From the IMG/VR virus record IMGVR_UViG_3300032004_000033, positions 1-37,950 of that record: 37,950 nucleotides of DNA; one strand, given 5' to 3'. This DNA comes from a virus. How positions within the stretch are numbered: the first letter of the stretch is position 1; each line of letters begins with the position of its first letter. Positions 1 to 37,950 of this stretch are shown here, in pieces. Both the position numbers and the translations under genes were made by a program. The notes under the pieces are model-generated. The model searched no databases. It had not been told where the DNA came from and was given only the letters and a program-made list of their open reading frames with translations.

Positions 1-127
1 GAGGATGGCGTCGTCGCCGTCGTTGGCTGTGGCGACAATTCGTCCAGCAGACGCTGGGTCAAGTTCGGCTCTCGCTTCTGCATGGTCCACGCTGGCGGCG
101 GGGCTGGCGGCTCGCACTGCTGGGCAG
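1..127. repeat. Left copy of the 127-bp terminal direct repeat (circular assembly overlap or terminal redundancy).
   Basis: gaggatggcgtcgtcgcc...ctgctgggcag is identical to 37824-37950. Confidence 0.95.
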
Positions 128-185
128 GCGGCCTTGACTGACAGGCGCTCAGCACCAGTGTTGATGCGAGCAAGACGACCAGCAT
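1..185 (-). CDS. Rz1: o-spanin (Rz1-like lipoprotein) embedded in the +1 frame of Rz. The last 2 codons and the stop lie at 37823-37817.
   Basis: ATG at 185. MLVVLLASTLVLSAC contains a lipobox (LSAC). The mature part is Pro-rich: QSRPPAQQCEPPAPPPAW... Total length 63 aa. Confidence 0.85.
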   Translation of the reverse strand, partial: MLVVLLASTLVLSACQSRPPAQQCEPPAPPPAWTMQKREPNLTQRLLDELSPQPTTATTPS

Positions 186-390
186 TGACTTGGTTTGCAC
201 GTTCGCGCTCCTGGGTGTGTTGGGTGTCCAGCTCCAGCAGCAGGCGCTGGGTGTTGCGTCGAGACTCGGCAGCGGCCTCCAGCTCGCTTACAAGCTTCGT
301 GGCTGTGTCCAGGCTGGTGGTGATATGGTCAAGGCGCCAGAACGCCAGGATCAGCGCCATAGCAAGGCCTGCGATCAGGTAGCGGGTCAT
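1..390 (-). CDS. Rz: i-spanin (Rz-like), first 130 codons. The frame continues across the circular junction to the stop at 37770.
   Basis: ATG at 390. N-terminal TMD MTRYLIAGLAMALILAFW, then a coiled-coil body ...RLSVKAACP...AELDP...NDGDDAILAL. The frame runs off position 1 and resumes at 37823. Total length 147 aa. Confidence 0.85.
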   Translation of the reverse strand, partial: MTRYLIAGLAMALILAFWRLDHITTSLDTATKLVSELEAAAESRRNTQRLLLELDTQHTQERERANQVNAGRLARINTGAERLSVKAACPAVRAASPAASVDHAEARAELDPASAGRIVATANDGDDAIL

Positions 391-402
391 GGCGCGCACC
401 GA

Positions 403-633
403 TCAGGAGAATGGATCGGCAGGTTTGGCGATGGAGCGCACAAACCACATGAAGCCCTGTTGCAAGTTGGTCTTGGCGAGCGCGAGCAGGCGCGGATCTA
501 CGCCTTCAATCTGGCCGATCTGCTTGAACAGCTCGCCGGCGTCGGCTTCCAGAGCCTTGATGGAGTTCATACCGTCAATCTCGGATTGGCTCAGGTCGCG
601 GTAGCCGGTGATTTTCTTGTGCTGGTTGTCCAT
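403..633 (-). CDS. 76-aa helical-hairpin protein inserted between endolysin and spanins. Possibly an Acb2-like cyclic-oligonucleotide sponge.
   Basis: ATG at 633 with GAGG about 9 nt upstream. Sequence MDNQHKKITGYRDLSQSEIDGMNSIKALEA...QQGFMWFVRSIAKP. There is no TMD. Tyr11 and Lys26 match what I recall as key Acb2 residues; this is from memory and not verified. Confidence 0.55.
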   Translation of the reverse strand: MDNQHKKITGYRDLSQSEIDGMNSIKALEADAGELFKQIGQIEGVDPRLLALAKTNLQQGFMWFVRSIAKPADPFS

Positions 634-658
634 GGGTATTGCCTCGTTGGTGGTGGGA

Positions 659-1168
659 TTACTGAGCAGCCATGCACTGGCTGTGTCGCTTGAGCTGTCG
701 AGCCCAGACCCCAGCACACCGCGTGTTGCCCGGCGTGGAGCAGTCATAGCCAGCGGCAAAGCGGTACTTGAGCAGGTCGGTGCAGGCCTGGGCGTAGTTG
801 CCGGCCAGCAGGCTCTTGCGTGGTGAGCCCTTGCGCCAGGTGCCCATGCCGTACTGGCCAACGAAGTCCATGTACAGATCGAACTCGTCTTGGTAGAGCT
901 TCACGCCCGGCAGGCTGGCGGCAAACTCTTTCTCGGCCTGGCTGTTGAGGTTGCGGGCCAGAACCTCGGCACGCTGGCGAGTGATGGTGTCGCCCATCTG
1001 AACAGGCCGGCCGTCCTCGTACCGTGTCGAGCCGTGGCCGATGGTGGGCACGTCGCCCTTGGTGGGGATGACAGCGCGGTCGGTGAACCCTTCGTTGGCC
1101 TGCCATGCGCCAAAGCCTGCCAGGCTGAGGGTGAGCAGGCCGACCGCGATGCGGTTGCGGTTGCTCAT
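659..1168 (-). CDS. SAR endolysin (T4/P22-type lysozyme family, GH24-like).
   Basis: ATG at 1168 overlaps the holin stop (ATGA). The N-terminal weakly hydrophobic Gly/Ala-rich segment IAVGLLTLSLAGFGAW is followed by NEGF...GDVPTIGHGST, a lysozyme signature. Confidence 0.85.
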   Translation of the reverse strand: MSNRNRIAVGLLTLSLAGFGAWQANEGFTDRAVIPTKGDVPTIGHGSTRYEDGRPVQMGDTITRQRAEVLARNLNSQAEKEFAASLPGVKLYQDEFDLYMDFVGQYGMGTWRKGSPRKSLLAGNYAQACTDLLKYRFAAGYDCSTPGNTRCAGVWARQLKRHSQCMAAQ

Positions 1169-1443
1169 GGCCGGCACTGATCGCGCAGGGCCTGGATGCG
1201 GGCGGCGCTCTCGGCGTGCTCACGGCGGTCACGGCGAATTTGGAAGTACGTGTTGACCAGGAAGCCAAGCACCGCGATGGCCACACCGACAATGCCCAGC
1301 CAGTTGGCTTGGGAGAGAAACCCCAAAAGGCCAGTACCTGCGCCCGCAAGCATGCCCTTGCTGGCAACAGATGCCCCCACAGCCTCAACGATTCCCTCAG
1401 GTGCAGGGTTCGACATGTTTGTACTCCTGTCTGGGGCTTTCAT
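1165..1443 (-). CDS. Holin, two TMDs (pinholin-like), with possible dual starts at Met1 and Met10.
   Basis: GGAGG lies 8 nt upstream of ATG 1443. TMDs are GMLAGAGTGLLGFL and WLGIVGVAIAVLGFLVNTYF, with a charged C-terminus RRDRREH. It is the first gene of the lysis cassette. Confidence 0.8.
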   Translation of the reverse strand: MKAPDRSTNMSNPAPEGIVEAVGASVASKGMLAGAGTGLLGFLSQANWLGIVGVAIAVLGFLVNTYFQIRRDRREHAESAARIQALRDQCRP

Positions 1444-1461
1444 GGTCTGGCCTCCAGGGTC

Positions 1462-1489
1462 AAAAAAAAGCCCCGCACTGTGGCGGGGC
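1462..1489 (-). terminator. Rho-independent terminator immediately upstream of the holin (tR'-like).
   Basis: Minus strand reads GCCCCGC-CACAGT-GCGGGGC followed by TTTTTTTT. Confidence 0.85.
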
Positions 1490-1520
1490 AGCGATGACGC
1501 AAGAGTCGTCGGGCTTGGGT

Positions 1521-1540
1521 GTCGGAATCCCGACTATTTC
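1521..1540 (-). promoter_or_regulatory. Late-strand element (LSE), copy E.
   Basis: Minus strand reads GAAATAGTCGGGATTCCGAC. A 5-bp stem GTCGG/CCGAC is preceded by AATA. The TAG inside it is the stop codon of ORF 1534-1797. Confidence 0.7.
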
Positions 1541-1797
1541 ACTGGCGTTCCGCCAGCAGTCACCCACAGATCGTGCAGCTCTTGGGTCATCTTGCTGATG
1601 TACTCGCCCTCGAAGCGCTCCACGTTGTACTTGCGCGCAGTGCACCACTCTTCGAACGACGGGCCTGTGCCAGACCGCAACAGCTTCTCGGCCTCGGCGG
1701 CGAGCTTTTCCGCCAGTACATGACTCCCACTATCCATGGCTCGGTTTGCTGCGTCGGATAGCTGAATGATTGCGTTTTGTTCGTCGTAAGTAAGCAT
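1534..1797 (-). CDS. Hypothetical 87-aa protein, the last gene before the late and lysis region.
   Basis: ATG at 1797 with GAGG 9 nt upstream. Sequence MLTYDEQNAIIQLSDAANRAMD... I recognise no family. Confidence 0.6.
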   Translation of the reverse strand: MLTYDEQNAIIQLSDAANRAMDSGSHVLAEKLAAEAEKLLRSGTGPSFEEWCTARKYNVERFEGEYISKMTQELHDLWVTAGGTPVK

Positions 1798-1807
1798 CGT
1801 GATTCCC

Positions 1808-2068
1808 TCATGCTTTCGAGTGATAAGCCCACCAGTCACCAACGGCGACCATGGGCAGCTTTGAACGGGCCTGGCCGGTGGCCTGGACCCAAAACAACAC
1901 AAGGCGCTCGCCCTCCGTGTAGCGAGGTTCAGCGCCCTGTTTCCAACCCAGCAACGTGCTGCGCGGGACTGCGATGGCATCGGCCACCGACTGCGGTGAG
2001 TAGCCGGCACGCGAAAGCACGGTTATCACCGTGAACCAATCCACGCGCTGTTCGGCCAGGGCGAGCAT
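1808..2068 (-). CDS. 86-aa putative HTH DNA-binding protein in the Q-equivalent position (candidate late regulator).
   Basis: ATG at 2068, directly after the stop of the upstream gene. The segment SPQSVADAIAVPRSTLLGWKQG looks like a helix-turn-helix. Confidence 0.5.
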   Translation of the reverse strand: MLALAEQRVDWFTVITVLSRAGYSPQSVADAIAVPRSTLLGWKQGAEPRYTEGERLVLFWVQATGQARSKLPMVAVGDWWAYHSKA

Positions 2069-2070
2069 GG

Positions 2071-2301
2071 TTAGGTCACTCGCAGGTATTTCGGCAGATC
2101 GACCACGATCACCTCGACGCCGTAGCAGGTGCAGCGCCGGACATCCTTCACGTAGGAGATGGTCACCGGCGTACAGCCGCGCATGCTTTGCAGCAGGTCG
2201 TACCATTCGCATTGGCCCAGGTAAATCACGACCCCGTCATGTGGAGCCTCAGTAGCGTTGAGCGACAAGGCATTCCTGATGCGGCTGAGGATGTCGCTCA
2301 T
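2071..2301 (-). CDS. Hypothetical 76-aa protein.
   Basis: ATGA start/stop overlap with the upstream ORF. Cys-rich: CEW...C..C.C. Confidence 0.55.
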   Translation of the reverse strand: MSDILSRIRNALSLNATEAPHDGVVIYLGQCEWYDLLQSMRGCTPVTISYVKDVRRCTCYGVEVIVVDLPKYLRVT

Positions 2302-2618
2302 GCTGCACCCCCAAACCGATACTGGATCAACTCCGCCAAGTCCTGGTCGGAGATCTCAAACGCGCACGCACGCGAGACAGAGCGAGGTGGCGCGTCCACC
2401 CTCCCCACCCTGCCCATGACTTCCGTCATTTCGGATATAACCGCCGCAAATTCCATAACTGGACTTGCAGCCTCGTCGAAGTGGAACGGATGCACGGCCC
2501 TCCTGAGCCCAAGCAGGCACTCCGGTTGCTCAGGCGACGACAGGTCGATATCGACGCCGATCATCACCCAACCGTCGTTCAGCTCGCGGCAGGCCCATTG
2601 CATGACTGGCTTGTTCAT
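2298..2618 (-). CDS. Hypothetical 106-aa protein.
   Basis: ATGA overlap with the rusA stop. Same strand and operon as its neighbours. Confidence 0.55.
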   Translation of the reverse strand: MNKPVMQWACRELNDGWVMIGVDIDLSSPEQPECLLGLRRAVHPFHFDEAASPVMEFAAVISEMTEVMGRVGRVDAPPRSVSRACAFEISDQDLAELIQYRFGGAA

Positions 2619-3058
2619 GAGTTTTTCCCCACCAGTGGAATGACGCGGACGGAGACGCCTGGCGTGTCGCTGAATCGCTTGCTCAGCGAGACGTTGACGA
2701 CCTGGACATCGTCCTTGAACACGATGCCGTTGATGCCGTCACAGATGGCCTTGAGCACGTTGTCCGCGTCGGGCTTCTTGGTGGGCATGACGTCACCCGC
2801 CAGGGCTTCGGCGGTTTTCTTCTTGGACCAGGACGCAGCCACGGCCACACGGATGGCGAGTTCCATCATCACCGGGCCGCCGATCAGCTCACGGCCTTGC
2901 ATGGCCTGCTGTGCTGCCATGGCGATCAGGGTTTCGTAGTTGGCGGTTTTCTTGGGCGTGAACATGCGTGCATGCCCACCGATGGTGGACACGCGCGGCC
3001 GGCCCTTGCCGATGGCTTCGCCTGGGACGATGAACGAAACGGGCTTGAATTCAGACAT
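2615..3058 (-). CDS. rusA: RusA-family Holliday junction resolvase.
   Basis: ATG at 3058 with GGAG upstream. FIVPGEAIGKGRPR...TPKKTANYE...KKPDADNVLKAICDGINGIVFKDD is the RusA signature. Confidence 0.85.
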   Translation of the reverse strand: MSEFKPVSFIVPGEAIGKGRPRVSTIGGHARMFTPKKTANYETLIAMAAQQAMQGRELIGGPVMMELAIRVAVAASWSKKKTAEALAGDVMPTKKPDADNVLKAICDGINGIVFKDDVQVVNVSLSKRFSDTPGVSVRVIPLVGKNS

Positions 3059-3770
3059 GGTCGTTTCTCCGAATGCCCATCTTGGCCAGCAGCAACGCGC
3101 GGCAGGCTTTCGGGTCTTTAGGGATTTCGAGGACATCGACGATGCGGTCAGCTTCCTGACGGCTGTGCTCGAGCTGGACCTGCTCACGCGGCCGCATGCT
3201 GTCGTTGCCAATGCCCTTGGCGATTCGCCCTTCCAGCGGCTGGCCGGTCTGTGCGCGGCGCATGACGATGGCGTAATTGCGTTCGAAGCGTTGGAACAGG
3301 GCTTTGTCACCGTGGGTGGCTGTTCTCAGGTCGAAGGTGCTGGTTGCTTCAGCGGCTACCCTGACGGCCTTGTGGCTGTACGAGCCGCGCAGTGCTTCAT
3401 CCCATGCCTGCTGGATGCTGGGCAGATCGTCGACACGTGCACACAGGTCGACAAAGTCGCTTGGCGCCGGTGGGAACTTGCATTCCGAAACCATGCGGTG
3501 AAGCCCGCGGTTGATTGCCTCGTCGCCAAAGTCCTTGAGCACGGTGTGCCAGACGCGACGGGCCATCTGTTCGGCCTTGGCATCGCCGTAGTGCTTCTCG
3601 TACCAGGCAGGGAACGCGGTTTTCAGCGTGGCGAACACCCGGCGCACAGCCTGGCGGGATTGGTTTTCAAGCGGTGTGACGTTCTCGATGACCGGCTCAC
3701 CAGTTGGGGTCTGTGAGGATGTCGTGAGCGTTACGCGGGCGGCTTTGAGCAATTCGTCTACCGGTTTCAT
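3051..3770 (-). CDS. Lambda P-like replication protein (helicase loader).
   Basis: ...RRVFATLKTAFPAWY...RRVWHTVLKDFGDEAINRGL...KFPPAPSDFVDLC resembles the lambda P N-terminal region. It sits immediately downstream of the O-like gene. Confidence 0.7.
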   Translation of the reverse strand: MKPVDELLKAARVTLTTSSQTPTGEPVIENVTPLENQSRQAVRRVFATLKTAFPAWYEKHYGDAKAEQMARRVWHTVLKDFGDEAINRGLHRMVSECKFPPAPSDFVDLCARVDDLPSIQQAWDEALRGSYSHKAVRVAAEATSTFDLRTATHGDKALFQRFERNYAIVMRRAQTGQPLEGRIAKGIGNDSMRPREQVQLEHSRQEADRIVDVLEIPKDPKACRALLLAKMGIRRNDHV

Positions 3771-4464
3771 TGGGTGTTCCCCCGTTGGCTTGCTGGGTGC
3801 GGGCTTGGCGTTTCAGTTGCTGGGCAAGCGAGTGCTCCCACTGGGCCTGTGTCTTCAGGTCATCGGGGCGGCTGATCCAGTACGAGCGGAATTCGAGAAG
3901 CTGATCGGCTTCGAAGGTTTGGCCTGCCATACCGTTGCGGTACAGGACGGCGGTGAACGTCTTGGGATCTGGCTCCCAGGCGTCGTGCAGCGAAAATTTC
4001 GTCTGCGCGGTATGTGTGTGTATATCTCTTATCTCTTCTCTTCTCTTCTCTTCTATATTCGTTGCGTTTTCGTTCAACGGAATTTCAACGGGCGTTGAAC
4101 GGGCGTTGCGCGATGCTTTAGCACGGGGCTTTGCGGCCTGCTTGCGAGCCTCGGCAGACGCCTTTCCTGCTGCAATTCGCTGTTCTTGGGTGTTTCGGAC
4201 AGCTTCCAAATCACGTTCAATTCGGTCGTGTACCCACTCGTTATCACGCTCGTTGAAGAATTCCCCCAACGACCGTTCAACGTCCGTCCAACGCTCGTTA
4301 GAAAGCCTTGTAATCCGGGCCAGTCGGGACACTGGAATAGGCTTGCCGGTCTGCCAGTAGTTGAAGATCAGCAACAGGTACGCACCGTGCTCTTCGGTGG
4401 TCAGGTGCATGGTGTCGGCCAGGTAATCGGCGACATAAAGCTGCATGTACGGGAGAGCGGCCAT
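3697..4464 (-). CDS. Replication initiator-like protein (DUF1376/YdaU-type N-terminus) containing an internal ori-like repeat region.
   Basis: ATG at 4464 with GGAGGAAG upstream. MAALPYMQLYVADYLADTMHLTTEEHGAYLLLIFNYW matches DUF1376. An iteron/AT-rich block lies inside the gene. Confidence 0.7.
   Translation of the reverse strand: MAALPYMQLYVADYLADTMHLTTEEHGAYLLLIFNYWQTGKPIPVSRLARITRLSNERWTDVERSLGEFFNERDNEWVHDRIERDLEAVRNTQEQRIAAGKASAEARKQAAKPRAKASRNARSTPVEIPLNENATNIEEKRREEIRDIHTHTAQTKFSLHDAWEPDPKTFTAVLYRNGMAGQTFEADQLLEFRSYWISRPDDLKTQAQWEHSLAQQLKRQARTQQANGGTPNETGRRIAQSRPRNAHDILTDPNW
4021..4115. repeat. Candidate origin of replication: alternating pyrimidine-purine and polypyrimidine tract followed by 11-bp-phased iterons.
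   Basis: tatgtgtgtgtatatctcttatctcttctcttctcttctcttctatattc, then CGTTCAACGG, TTTCAACGGGCG, TTGAACGGGCG. More CGTTSAA copies occur at 4214-4297. Confidence 0.5.
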
Positions 4465-4465
4465 A

Positions 4466-4771
4466 TCAGTCTTCCTCCAACTGATCGACGTGTTGCACAT
4501 GCTCCATCCAGCGCTTGGCCTGGTGGAAGATCGCCTCGATATCGCGCTGGTTGAAACAGCGCATTTCGTTGGGAACGATCTTCAGATCGAGCACGGCCAG
4601 GATCGCGGCGAACTGCTCGAACTTCTCAGGTTTCATGCGGCTGATCGTTGCCTCATCGACACCGACTGCAAGCGCTACAGGCCCGTTGCCGATCGATGCA
4701 AGCCGCTGCATGAGAACGGCGTAGTTCTTGCGGGCCCTTACGGTCTGCTCTTGGTTCAATGGGCTCGACAT
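4466..4771 (-). CDS. cII: CII-like transcriptional activator.
   Basis: AVGVDEATISRMKPEKFEQFAAILAVLDLKIV parallels lambda CII AVGVDKSQISRWKRDWIPKFSMLLAVLEWGVV. It lies directly after cro. Confidence 0.8.
   Translation of the reverse strand: MSSPLNQEQTVRARKNYAVLMQRLASIGNGPVALAVGVDEATISRMKPEKFEQFAAILAVLDLKIVPNEMRCFNQRDIEAIFHQAKRWMEHVQHVDQLEED
4728..4760 (+). promoter_or_regulatory. pRE-like CII-dependent promoter candidate, antisense to cII and cro and reading toward cI.
   Basis: TTGC-GGGCCC-TTAC, then 13 nt, then TTCAAT. This is the same geometry as lambda TTGC-N6-TTGC-N13-(-10), sited at the 5' end of cII. Confidence 0.4.
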
Positions 4772-8774: not shown

Positions 8775-9518
8775 ATGTCCGAATTAGCGATCAAACCCAC
8801 CTTCAGCCTTGCGCCGCAGAACATCGAAGAGGCGTTGAAGTTTGCCGACTACCTCGCCAAGTCGACCATTGTGCCGAAGGACTTCGCCAACAATCCCGGC
8901 AACATCCTGGTGGCGATCCAGTGGGGTATGGAGCTGGGCCTGCAACCGATGCAGGCGATGCAGAACATCGCGGTCATCAACGGCCGCCCAGCTCTGTGGG
9001 GCGATGCAGTAATCGCCCTGGTGCGCAGCTCGCCGCTGTGTGAGTACATCTACGAAACCGACGACGGCGAGACGGCTACGTGCCGTGTGAAGCGCCGCGA
9101 CGAAGAAGAGCAAGTCCGAACCTTCAGCATGACGGACGCCAAGCTGGCCGGCCTGGCTGGGAAGCAAGGCCCTTGGAGCCAGTACCCGAAACGGATGCGC
9201 CAGATGCGCGCCAGGGCCTTTGCCTTGCGCGACGTGTTCCCCGACGTGTTACGCGGGATGCCGGTGGCCGAAGAAGTACAGGACATCCCAACCGAGCGCG
9301 AGATTGGCCCGGCCCGCGAAGCTGAAGCGCCCAAGGCTCTGCCCGCCTACCCCGATGACAAGCTCACCGAGAACCTGCCGAAGTGGCGAGCGGCCATTGA
9401 GGCGAAGAAGCAAACCCCGGAAACGGTCATCGCCACCATAAGCAGTAAGTACATCCTCACGGCCGCCCAGACCGAAACCATCAATCAGTTGAAGCCTCTC
9501 GAAGGAGTAACCGCATGA
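8775..9518 (+). CDS. recT: RecT-family single-strand annealing protein.
   Basis: ...PKDFANNPGNILVAIQWGMELGLQPMQAMQNIAVINGRPALWGDA... is the RecT signature. It is paired with the downstream exonuclease. Confidence 0.85.
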   Translation: MSELAIKPTFSLAPQNIEEALKFADYLAKSTIVPKDFANNPGNILVAIQWGMELGLQPMQAMQNIAVINGRPALWGDAVIALVRSSPLCEYIYETDDGETATCRVKRRDEEEQVRTFSMTDAKLAGLAGKQGPWSQYPKRMRQMRARAFALRDVFPDVLRGMPVAEEVQDIPTEREIGPAREAEAPKALPAYPDDKLTENLPKWRAAIEAKKQTPETVIATISSKYILTAAQTETINQLKPLEGVTA

Positions 9519-11161
9519 TTATTCACAACGTAGCCCAGGGTTCTCCTGAGTGGCATGCCTTGCGCGCCAAGCACTTCACCGCGTCGGAAGCCCCGGCGAT
9601 GATGGGCGCTTCGAAGTATCAGACCCGGTCCGAACTGCTCGCCATGAAGAAAACCGGCATCGTTCCGGAAGTCACCGCCCAGCAGCAGCGCATTTTCGAT
9701 AAAGGCCACGCCACCGAAGAGCTGGCGCGCCCGCTGGTGGAAACGCTGATTGGCGAGGAGCTGTACCCAATCGTTGGCACCGAGGGCAACCTGTTGGCCT
9801 CCATGGACGGCTCCACGATGCTTGGCGAAACGCTGTTCGAGCACAAGCTGTGGAATCAGGACCTGGTCGCCCAGATCAATGCCGGTGAGCTGCCGCCCCA
9901 CTATTACTGGCAGCTTGAACAGCAACTGCTGGTTAGCGGCGCCGAGCGAGTGATTTTCGTATGTTCGGATGGCACCGCTGAGAACTTCGTCCACATGGAA
10001 TACCGTCCTGTGGATGGCCGCGCCGAACTGCTGGTGGCCGGCTGGGCCCAATTCGAGCAAGACCTTGGCGTGTTCGAGGTGAAAGAAGCCAAGGTCGAGG
10101 CTATCGGTGCCGCGCCTGATCAACTGCCGGCGCTGCGCATTGACGTAACGGGCATGGTCACCGCCAGCAACCTGGACGCCTTCAAGGCCCGCGCCCTCTC
10201 CGTCATCGGAAACATAAGCACTGAGCTGAAAACCGACAAGGACTTCGCCGACGCTGACGCCACGGTCAAGTGGTGCAACGAAGTCGAGGACAAGCTCAAG
10301 GCGGCGAAAGAACACGCCCTGAGCCAAACCGAAAGCATCGACGTGCTGTTCAAGGCGATGGATGACATCGTGGCCGAGACTCGGCGCAAGCGGCTCGAAC
10401 TGGAAAAGCTGGTCAAGGCGCGCAAGGACGCCATCCGCAGTGACATCGTTATGGATGCGGCCAAGGCCTTGCAGGACCACATCGACCAGATCAACAGCAC
10501 ATTGGGGGGCCGCATCCGCATGCCGCGTGTTGCCTCCGACTTTGCAGGCGCCATCAAGGGCAAGAAGTCGGTGTCCAGCCTCCAGGAAGCGGCTGACGCT
10601 GAACTGGCCCGGGCGAAGATCGATTCCAGCCGGATCGCCGACGGCATCCGCATCAACCAAGCCAGCCTTAACGAGCTGGCGAAGGACCATAAGTTCCTGT
10701 TCCACGATGCTCAAGAGCTGGTCATGAAGGCCAACGATGACCTGGTGGCGCTGATCAAGGTCCGCATCAACGAGCATGATCAGCAGCAGGCAGAGCTCAA
10801 GCGCCTGGAAGATGAAAAGGCGCAGCAACTCGCCGCTCAACAGCAACAGCAGGTCGCACCGGTGGTTGCAGAGCCGAACCCCGAGCCAGTCGCAGAGACC
10901 CCGGCACCAGTGGCAGCAACGCCAATCAAACAAGCTGCAGCTGTCCAGCCAGGCGCCGACGACGGCCAGCGGCTCAAGCTTGGCGAACTCGGCTCAATGC
11001 TGGGCTTCACGCTGTCGGCCGACTTCCTGCGCTCCCTGGGCTTCGAAGCGGTTGAGCGCAAACAAGGTGCCTGCCTGTACCGGGCGATTGATTTCCCGGC
11101 CATCTGCGGCGCTCTGGTCAACCACATTCAGGCAGTGCAGAGCAACCAGGCTGCCGCCTGA
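9515..11161 (+). CDS. YqaJ-type recombination exonuclease fused to a roughly 350-aa coiled-coil (DUF1351-like) and C-terminal extension.
   Basis: N-terminus GSPEWHALRAKHFTASEAPAMMG...GHATEE...FEHK is the YqaJ signature. The C-terminus contains TDKDFADADATVKWCNEVEDKLKAAKEHAL... coiled coil, a Q/P-rich linker and a globular tail. Confidence 0.75.
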   Translation: MIIHNVAQGSPEWHALRAKHFTASEAPAMMGASKYQTRSELLAMKKTGIVPEVTAQQQRIFDKGHATEELARPLVETLIGEELYPIVGTEGNLLASMDGSTMLGETLFEHKLWNQDLVAQINAGELPPHYYWQLEQQLLVSGAERVIFVCSDGTAENFVHMEYRPVDGRAELLVAGWAQFEQDLGVFEVKEAKVEAIGAAPDQLPALRIDVTGMVTASNLDAFKARALSVIGNISTELKTDKDFADADATVKWCNEVEDKLKAAKEHALSQTESIDVLFKAMDDIVAETRRKRLELEKLVKARKDAIRSDIVMDAAKALQDHIDQINSTLGGRIRMPRVASDFAGAIKGKKSVSSLQEAADAELARAKIDSSRIADGIRINQASLNELAKDHKFLFHDAQELVMKANDDLVALIKVRINEHDQQQAELKRLEDEKAQQLAAQQQQQVAPVVAEPNPEPVAETPAPVAATPIKQAAAVQPGADDGQRLKLGELGSMLGFTLSADFLRSLGFEAVERKQGACLYRAIDFPAICGALVNHIQAVQSNQAAA

Positions 11162-37756: not shown

Positions 37757-37775
37757 GTCGGGTTCCCGACTATTT
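37757..37775 (-). promoter_or_regulatory. Late-strand element (LSE), copy A.
   Basis: Minus strand reads AAATAGTCGGGAACCCGAC. The TAG is the Rz stop codon. It lies 58 nt upstream of ATG 37699. Confidence 0.7.
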
Positions 37776-37950
37776 GCGAGGGGTGCAGGCGGTGCTCACG
37801 TAGTCCTGAAGCGCGGTCAGGGCGAGGATGGCGTCGTCGCCGTCGTTGGCTGTGGCGACAATTCGTCCAGCAGACGCTGGGTCAAGTTCGGCTCTCGCTT
37901 CTGCATGGTCCACGCTGGCGGCGGGGCTGGCGGCTCGCACTGCTGGGCAG
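37770..37950 (-). CDS. Rz: C-terminal part of the Rz i-spanin (the same gene as 1-390, seen through the terminal repeat).
   Basis: ...ILALTALQDYVSTACTPRK, stop TAG at 37770-37772. Confidence 0.85.
   Translation of the reverse strand, partial: CPAVRAASPAASVDHAEARAELDPASAGRIVATANDGDDAILALTALQDYVSTACTPRK
37817..37950 (-). CDS. Rz1: C-terminal part of the embedded Rz1 o-spanin.
   Basis: ...PTTATTPSSP, stop TGA at 37817-37819. Confidence 0.8.
   Translation of the reverse strand, partial: AQQCEPPAPPPAWTMQKREPNLTQRLLDELSPQPTTATTPSSP
37824..37950. repeat. Right copy of the 127-bp terminal direct repeat.
   Basis: Identical to 1-127. Confidence 0.95.

Follow-up and report, generated by a model that had tools for sequence, protein, structure and literature searches.

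A probable short-hairpin Acb2-family sponge gene in the lysis cassette of a temperate phage

The window analyzed here is the whole stretch of 37,950 nucleotides at positions 1 to 37,950 of IMG/VR record IMGVR_UViG_3300032004_000033. Its two ends (1-127 and 37824-37950) are identical over exactly 127 bp. Identical 127-base ends are typical of the overlap left by an assembler at k = 127, and the window therefore represents a genome that is complete and circular (37,823 bp), in which the spanin genes Rz and Rz1 cross the junction. The genome has a G+C content of 60.5% and belongs to a temperate phage of Pseudomonas type, with a gene set that includes an integrase, CI-like and CII-like regulators, RecE/RecT, RusA, a T7-type portal, a major head protein, the large terminase subunit, and a tail fiber. 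The early region (8775-11161 on the plus strand, 2615-3040 and 3697-4500 on the minus strand) encodes a RecT-like annealing protein, a RecE-like exonuclease (phrog_7655, E = 1e-212), RusA, and a replication protein with a DUF1376/DnaT domain; here an early region of lambdoid style occurs alongside a T7-type portal (PF12236) and an integrase. We found no close relative among GenBank phages, as megablast of 1-1500 and 17500-37800 returned short matches only.

The lysis cassette lies on the minus strand, in the order holin, endolysin, acb2-like gene, and Rz with an embedded Rz1. The holin is class II-like (1165..1443; PF16082, E = 7e-14; phrog_4237), and the endolysin that follows it belongs to the phage lysozyme family (659..1177; PF00959, E = 4e-14; phrog_7). 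The N-terminus of the endolysin is hydrophobic and Gly/Ala-rich (IAVGLLTLSLAGFGAW; Kyte-Doolittle maximum 1.23 at residue 10), which suggests that it is of the SAR (signal-anchor-release) or secreted type, paired with the class II-like holin. The first 130 of the 147 codons of the Rz i-spanin are found at 1..390 (PF03245, phrog_2466), from where the gene runs on across the circular junction to 37770; its C-terminal part lies at 37773..37949, and the complete protein has 147 aa after circularization. A putative Rz1 o-spanin is recognizable within Rz, in the +1 frame (1..185; MLVVLLASTLVLSAC...), from its lipobox (LSAC) and proline-rich sequence. Between endolysin and Rz, at 403..633, lies the 76-codon gene that is the subject of this work, starting 25 nt after the endolysin stop and ending 12 nt before the Rz start codon (ATG at 390).

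Some 20 nt upstream of the holin start, a consensus scan located a terminator-like hairpin at 1462..1489 (minus strand; 7 GC pairs followed by T8), which likely marks the start of a late lysis operon that includes acb2. The hairpin resembles the tR' terminator that stands ahead of lambdoid late operons, and by that analogy would imply Q-type antitermination. We identified no antiterminator gene, with the open reading frames (ORFs) at 1534..1830 and 2071..2618 giving no family match. The same kind of scan found no promoter-like site in 1..2400, and terminator-like sites only upstream of the holin. Because the genes are tightly packed, internal promoter- or terminator-like sites are absent, and the hairpin stands ahead of the holin, acb2 would be transcribed with the late lysis genes, and its product is probably synthesized alongside the lysis and virion proteins.

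With respect to the gene itself, translation of the minus strand at 403..633 gives exactly the 76-aa protein quoted in the earlier note, followed by a stop codon, and its placement there between endolysin and Rz is confirmed by the coordinates of both neighbors. The start codon (633..631) is preceded at a distance of 8 nt by a GAGG ribosome-binding site (642..645, minus strand), which is conserved in the upstream alignment of 121 loci and is the only flanking sequence common to the window and the homologous loci. The predicted product is 8.5 kDa in size. Its maximum Kyte-Doolittle score over 19 residues is only 0.53, compared with values of 2.09 in the holin and 1.68 in Rz; at this window size we observe no hydrophobic segment, and hydropathy revealed neither a transmembrane domain nor a signal peptide, in line with what the earlier note had described.

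The 403..633 gene is a real gene under strong purifying selection. We compared it with 112 distinct 231-nt gene versions, drawn from 143 loci on IMG/VR contigs and in bacterial genomes, and counted 470, 281, and 2,902 differences from the window gene at codon positions 1, 2, and 3, respectively. Across these 112 variants, synonymous codon differences outnumber nonsynonymous ones by 2,915 to 315. Two plus-strand ORFs antisense to the gene (190..693 and 389..604) have a high GC3 in a crude gene caller, and both were rejected as genes, since the substitution pattern fits the minus-strand frame instead. A protein search returned 1,068 relatives, and the best 120 of these 1,068 have 78 to 99% identity to the window protein, most of them with a length of exactly 76 aa.

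Sequence comparisons place the protein in the Acb2 family. The earlier note had suggested a search with the Acb2/Tad1-hairpin profile, and this profile (Pfam PF24729, Acb2_Tad1_hairpin) matches at 68 bits against a gathering cut-off of 27 (E = 8.2e-19), with all of its 58 positions aligned (1-58). Among structures in the PDB, phmmer matched the crystallized Acb2 of Pseudomonas phage PaMx33 (8h2j, 8ixz; E = 5.5e-14) and T4 Vs.4 (7uq2; E = 0.009), while BLASTP aligned the window protein to PaMx33 Acb2 end to end with 43% identity (E = 3e-21) and a single central gap of 18 residues. In PHROGs the protein matches phrog_29522 and phrog_717, and these two and PF24729 were the only families returned from Pfam and PHROGs, with no lysis family among them. 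Near-identical Pseudomonas proteins are already named "Acb2/Tad1 domain-containing protein" or DUF7681 in public databases, and the homologues carry the same precomputed Acb2/Tad1 domain.

The predicted fold leads to the same assignment. An AlphaFold2 monomer model built on 33 homologues has a mean pLDDT of 85.6 and consists of a short N-terminal helix (residues 4-7) and two long helices (16-40 and 47-68) connected by the loop GQIEGVDP, with residues 11 and 71 in contact. This two-helix hairpin agrees with the layout proposed from the sequence in the earlier note, and the model matches the Acb2-family protomer fold of one short helix at the N-terminus plus two antiparallel helices that are long. 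In a Foldseek search of the PDB, ranks 1 to 8 are all Acb2 or Vs.4 structures (probability 1.00, TM 0.63 to 0.71), and the next matches have E values of about 1. With the Pfam profile, the PaMx33 and Vs.4 matches, the Foldseek ranking, and the conserved contact residues described below, the earlier suggestion of an Acb2-type sponge is well supported, and we hold with considerable confidence that the gene encodes a sponge protein of the short-hairpin Acb2 (Vs.4) family. As such it is an ordinary added member of a known family and no new kind of gene.

Among the characterized sponges, Acb2 of PaMx33 (PDB 8H2J, 8H2X, 8IXZ; "p26") has an N-terminal stretch of 28 residues that is nearly identical to that of the window protein, as well as the same helical-hairpin fold (Foldseek probability 1.0, TM 0.71); PaMx33, however, is a lytic phage, whereas the window genome is temperate and has its acb2 inside the lysis cassette. 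Acb2 of the temperate Pseudomonas phage JBD67 (gp34) is 49% identical to the window protein in our own alignment and conserves the equivalents of R67 and T74, but the JBD67 protein (108 aa as annotated) has a much longer middle region and its gene directly follows the major head gene, unlike the window gene. The JBD67 protein is reported to bind 3'3'-cGAMP at about 99 nM and cA3 at about 3.5 nM (Cao et al., PMC10312549). T4 Vs.4 (PDB 7UQ2) shares the fold (Foldseek probability 1.0, TM 0.64) and the C-terminal motif (A)KT..L.E..MW..R...P with the window protein; it is only about 23% identical, however, and lacks the R67 equivalent (D61). Its binding spectrum differs from that of PaMx33 Acb2 (Cao et al., PMC10312549). 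A further comparison is offered by Tad1 (Thoeris anti-defense 1), which is also a signal-sequestering sponge and contains the two-helix hairpin module that defines PF24729, but which has an extra N-terminal beta-sheet domain and is larger (about 100 to 150 aa), whereas the window protein is the hairpin only.

The residues that contact the ligands are conserved as well. PaMx33 Acb2 has two independent pockets, of which one requires Y11 (stacking) and K26 (salt bridge) for cyclic-dinucleotide binding and the other, separate one requires R67 and T74, with A70 and I71, for cA3 (Cao et al., PMC10312549); L14 and P90 are hydrophobic contacts of the adenine in Acb2 (Hadary et al.). In the HMMER alignment, Y11, L14, K26, and P90 of PaMx33 correspond to Y11, L14, K26, and P71 of the window protein, which bears out the positions of Tyr11 and Lys26 that the earlier note had given, and R67, A70, I71, and T74 correspond to R48, A51, L52, and T55. 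Across the 112 gene variants, the dinucleotide residues are close to invariant (Y11, L14, and K26 in 112/112, P71 in 111/112), and the trinucleotide residues are nearly so (R48 and L52 in 111/112, T55 in 110/112, A51 in 104/112). Residues of the cyclic-trinucleotide pocket occur in only some members of the Acb2 family. Judged by these residues, the window protein resembles the broad-spectrum type of PaMx33 and JBD67, with both pockets, and not the T4 or CHI14 proteins, in which one pocket residue is missing; its ligand spectrum is predicted on the same basis.

By homology with Acb2 of PaMx33, JBD67, and T4, the soluble 76-aa protein would assemble as a homo-oligomer, which in the solved relatives is an interlocked hexamer, and the pockets formed where its protomers meet would capture cyclic-oligonucleotide messengers produced by the CD-NTases of the host. 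For cyclic dinucleotides such as 3'3'-cGAMP, this would involve stacking on Y11 and salt bridges to K26 in a pocket lined by L14 and P71; for cyclic trinucleotides (cA3, cAAG), R48 and T55, together with A51 and L52, would provide the binding site on the three-fold axis. A hexamer would then trap three cyclic dinucleotides at its dimer interfaces and two cyclic trinucleotides on the three-fold axis. With the signal withheld, CBASS effectors (the phospholipase CapV, the nuclease NucC, and others) would stay inactive and the phage would complete its cycle. For the window protein, we infer the oligomer, the ligands, the timing, and the phenotype.

Family membership alone leaves the ligand unfixed, because some Acb2 homologues bind 3'cADPR or failed against the CBASS systems on which they were tested. 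The window protein could thus have the Acb2 fold and yet capture a signal from outside CBASS, for example the 3'cADPR messenger of Thoeris, instead of cGAMP or cA3. Specificity varies across the family, and 10 Acb2 homologues, Acb2_43 among them, inhibit type I Thoeris (Hadary et al.). Acb2_43, however, binds through an N-terminal beta-strand (T4, H5, L6, V7) and is without the G-Y motif, whereas the window protein has the CBASS-type motif G10-Y11-R12; BLASTP detected no similarity between the two proteins at E values up to 100. Furthermore, the window protein keeps every CBASS-type contact of PaMx33 (Y11, L14, K26, R48, T55, P71) as well as the near-identical 28 N-terminal residues. We therefore reject a Thoeris-type Acb2 as the main reading and consider a non-CBASS ligand improbable, and a sponge for CBASS messengers is the reading we carry forward.

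The lysis slot of the window gene is not unique to this genome. Three P. aeruginosa phages (5400, vB_PaeS-D14B, and vB_Pae_U2) also have the order endolysin-acb2-Rz, with an Acb2 protein that is 95% identical and an endolysin of a different length. In a P. urethralis prophage, a close homologue follows a lambda-type holin and precedes HNH and terminase genes. For a wider view we counted the neighbors of acb2 at 122 loci encoding a protein at least 90% identical to that of the window, using a small reference set that combined lysis proteins recognized through PHROGs or Pfam with those encoded by the lysis genes of the window and phage 5400. A holin or spanin is the immediate neighbor in at least 69 of the 122 loci, and a lysis gene recognized by this small set lies within 1.5 kb in 89. 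The earlier note had regarded co-expression with lysis genes as an unusual position for an anti-defense gene; this view is not supported for the present Pseudomonas clade, in which the position is the commonest one. We found no paper discussing an association of Acb2 with holin, endolysin, or spanin genes.

Such recurrence, together with the place of the window gene between endolysin and Rz, might be expected of a cytoplasmic lysis regulator, a timing factor for endolysin or holin whose position in the cassette reflects a role in lysis, but the linkage is not obligate: at 33 of the 122 loci the limited reference set recognizes no lysis gene within 1.5 kb. Proteins 83 to 92% identical to that of the window are encoded in non-lysis contexts, between helicase and ThyX/ribonucleotide reductase genes in Stutzerimonas and before scaffold and capsid genes in Azotobacter. 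The acb2 of JBD67, behind the major head gene, likewise stands apart from a lysis role. Where lysis genes do adjoin acb2, they are holins and spanins of several unrelated families, and DNA similarity stops at the gene borders. Adding the absence of any transmembrane domain, signal peptide, or lysis-family match and the strong homology to a biochemically defined sponge, we reject a lysis role and regard a lysis regulator as very improbable.

In blastn comparisons of the window with nearly all loci, similarity is confined to the gene and the 12 to 14 nt or so before its ATG, the exceptions being two IMG/VR contigs (L085 and L093) that also have the holin and endolysin of the window in common. 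As similarity ends at the gene and its ribosome-binding site, acb2 behaves as a discrete, independently mobile cassette, which is often but not always placed at lysis genes. This is in line with the original Acb2 paper, which describes the genomic position of acb2 as highly variable (Huiting et al., bioRxiv).

Several further features of the homologous loci were observed. Pseudomonas sp. RIT623 has two acb2 copies about 7 kb apart on a single contig (NZ_SOZA01000025.1; L105, L130), with products 97% and 88% identical to the window protein, and in P. rustica MBT-4 (L094, L104, L114) three copies are spread over separate contigs. At many other loci (L014-L022 among them), a perfect palindrome (GTGTCGCGACAC) or a hairpin GCGCCA..TGGCGC is present about 15 to 30 nt upstream of acb2, before the ribosome-binding site, where it may be an operator, a processing site, or a recombination scar; upstream of the gene, the window shares no more than the GAGG with these loci. 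With respect to annotation, acb2 and Rz are given correctly in phage 5400 (L001) as separate plus-strand genes, and both are unannotated at 2980-3675 of the records for vB_PaeS-D14B (BK061476.1, L002) and vB_Pae_U2 (PP003914.1, L003), where a 696-nt antisense coding sequence spans them and is named "hypothetical protein" in one record and "Rz-like spanin" in the other.

Compared with PaMx33 Acb2 (93 aa), the 76-aa window protein lacks about 17 to 18 residues (around 40-56 of PaMx33), which form the tip of the hairpin. A variable middle length has already been described for the family (Huiting et al., bioRxiv), and the catalogue of 4,204 sequences by Hadary et al. includes many members of 70 to 76 aa with the same termini, with anti-CBASS activity validated for homologues of 64 to 76 aa (Table S2). 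One tested protein, homologue 16 (DTR_578507_36), was active against both CBASS systems on which it was tested (Hadary et al. 2025, Table S2). It has the same short tip (EGEVDPRWLAIARTD, compared with EGVDPRLLALAKTN in the window) and aligns almost without gaps at 42% identity, but carries N- and C-terminal extensions (93 aa in total) that are absent from the window protein. A search among the homologues tested by Hadary et al. turned up no protein from this exact short clade of Pseudomonas (MDNQHKKITGYRDLSQ). That the window protein is a decayed, non-functional Acb2 remnant with its middle deleted, as the residues missing relative to PaMx33 might suggest, is barely credible and a truncated pseudogene is rejected, given that 76 aa is the standard length for the clade and in more than 100 listed homologues and that the gene is under strong purifying selection. 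The missing middle is no sign of decay, because the middle length varies within the family, short members are common, and short homologues are active. The absent tip could change the assembly or the geometry of the trinucleotide pocket.

Regarding the surroundings of the gene elsewhere, we observe that in most of the other Pseudomonas prophages with this acb2, its stop codon and the start codon of a conserved ORF of 62 to 63 aa (phrog_15190; for example, 3231-3419 in L015 and in L039, and 2731-2922 in L011) overlap (TGATG). In many cases the next gene is an 83-aa ORF (phrog_30428) or encodes an HslV-like peptidase (phrog_1040). None of the three partners was found in the window by tblastn, and its acb2 stands solo. 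The phrog_15190, phrog_30428, and HslV-like partners could be further anti-defense genes. The recurrent lysis-operon location and the coupled 62- to 63-aa partner in other prophages are the only lead that goes past what is known of Acb2.

The timing of expression may bear on this location. CBASS is thought to be triggered late, as mutations that allow escape lie in the late capsid gene (Huiting et al., bioRxiv), and late expression of acb2 would fit a CBASS response to late, capsid-related events: a sponge encoded in the lysis operon would be made exactly when the late CBASS signal appears. In Pseudomonas prophages, the acb2 cassette is present many times beside unrelated holins and spanins. 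Tentatively, in temperate phages of Pseudomonas, the part of the late operon that surrounds the lysis genes might be a recurrent insertion site for anti-defense genes, possibly including the partners, with the placement selected by late CBASS triggering; we put this forward as a possibility that is at present rather doubtful.

With this work, a temperate phage genome not described otherwise gains one confidently assigned, predicted anti-CBASS gene, and the existing view of how Acb2 works is left unchanged. At least two GenBank phage records miss acb2 or hide it under an antisense ORF. For this Pseudomonas clade, acb2 is usually found in the lysis cassette, frequently accompanied by a translationally coupled 62-aa partner. 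We predict that the phage resists CBASS systems whose signal is cGAMP or cA3, and it may in turn be detectable by sponge-sensing defenses such as Panoptes.
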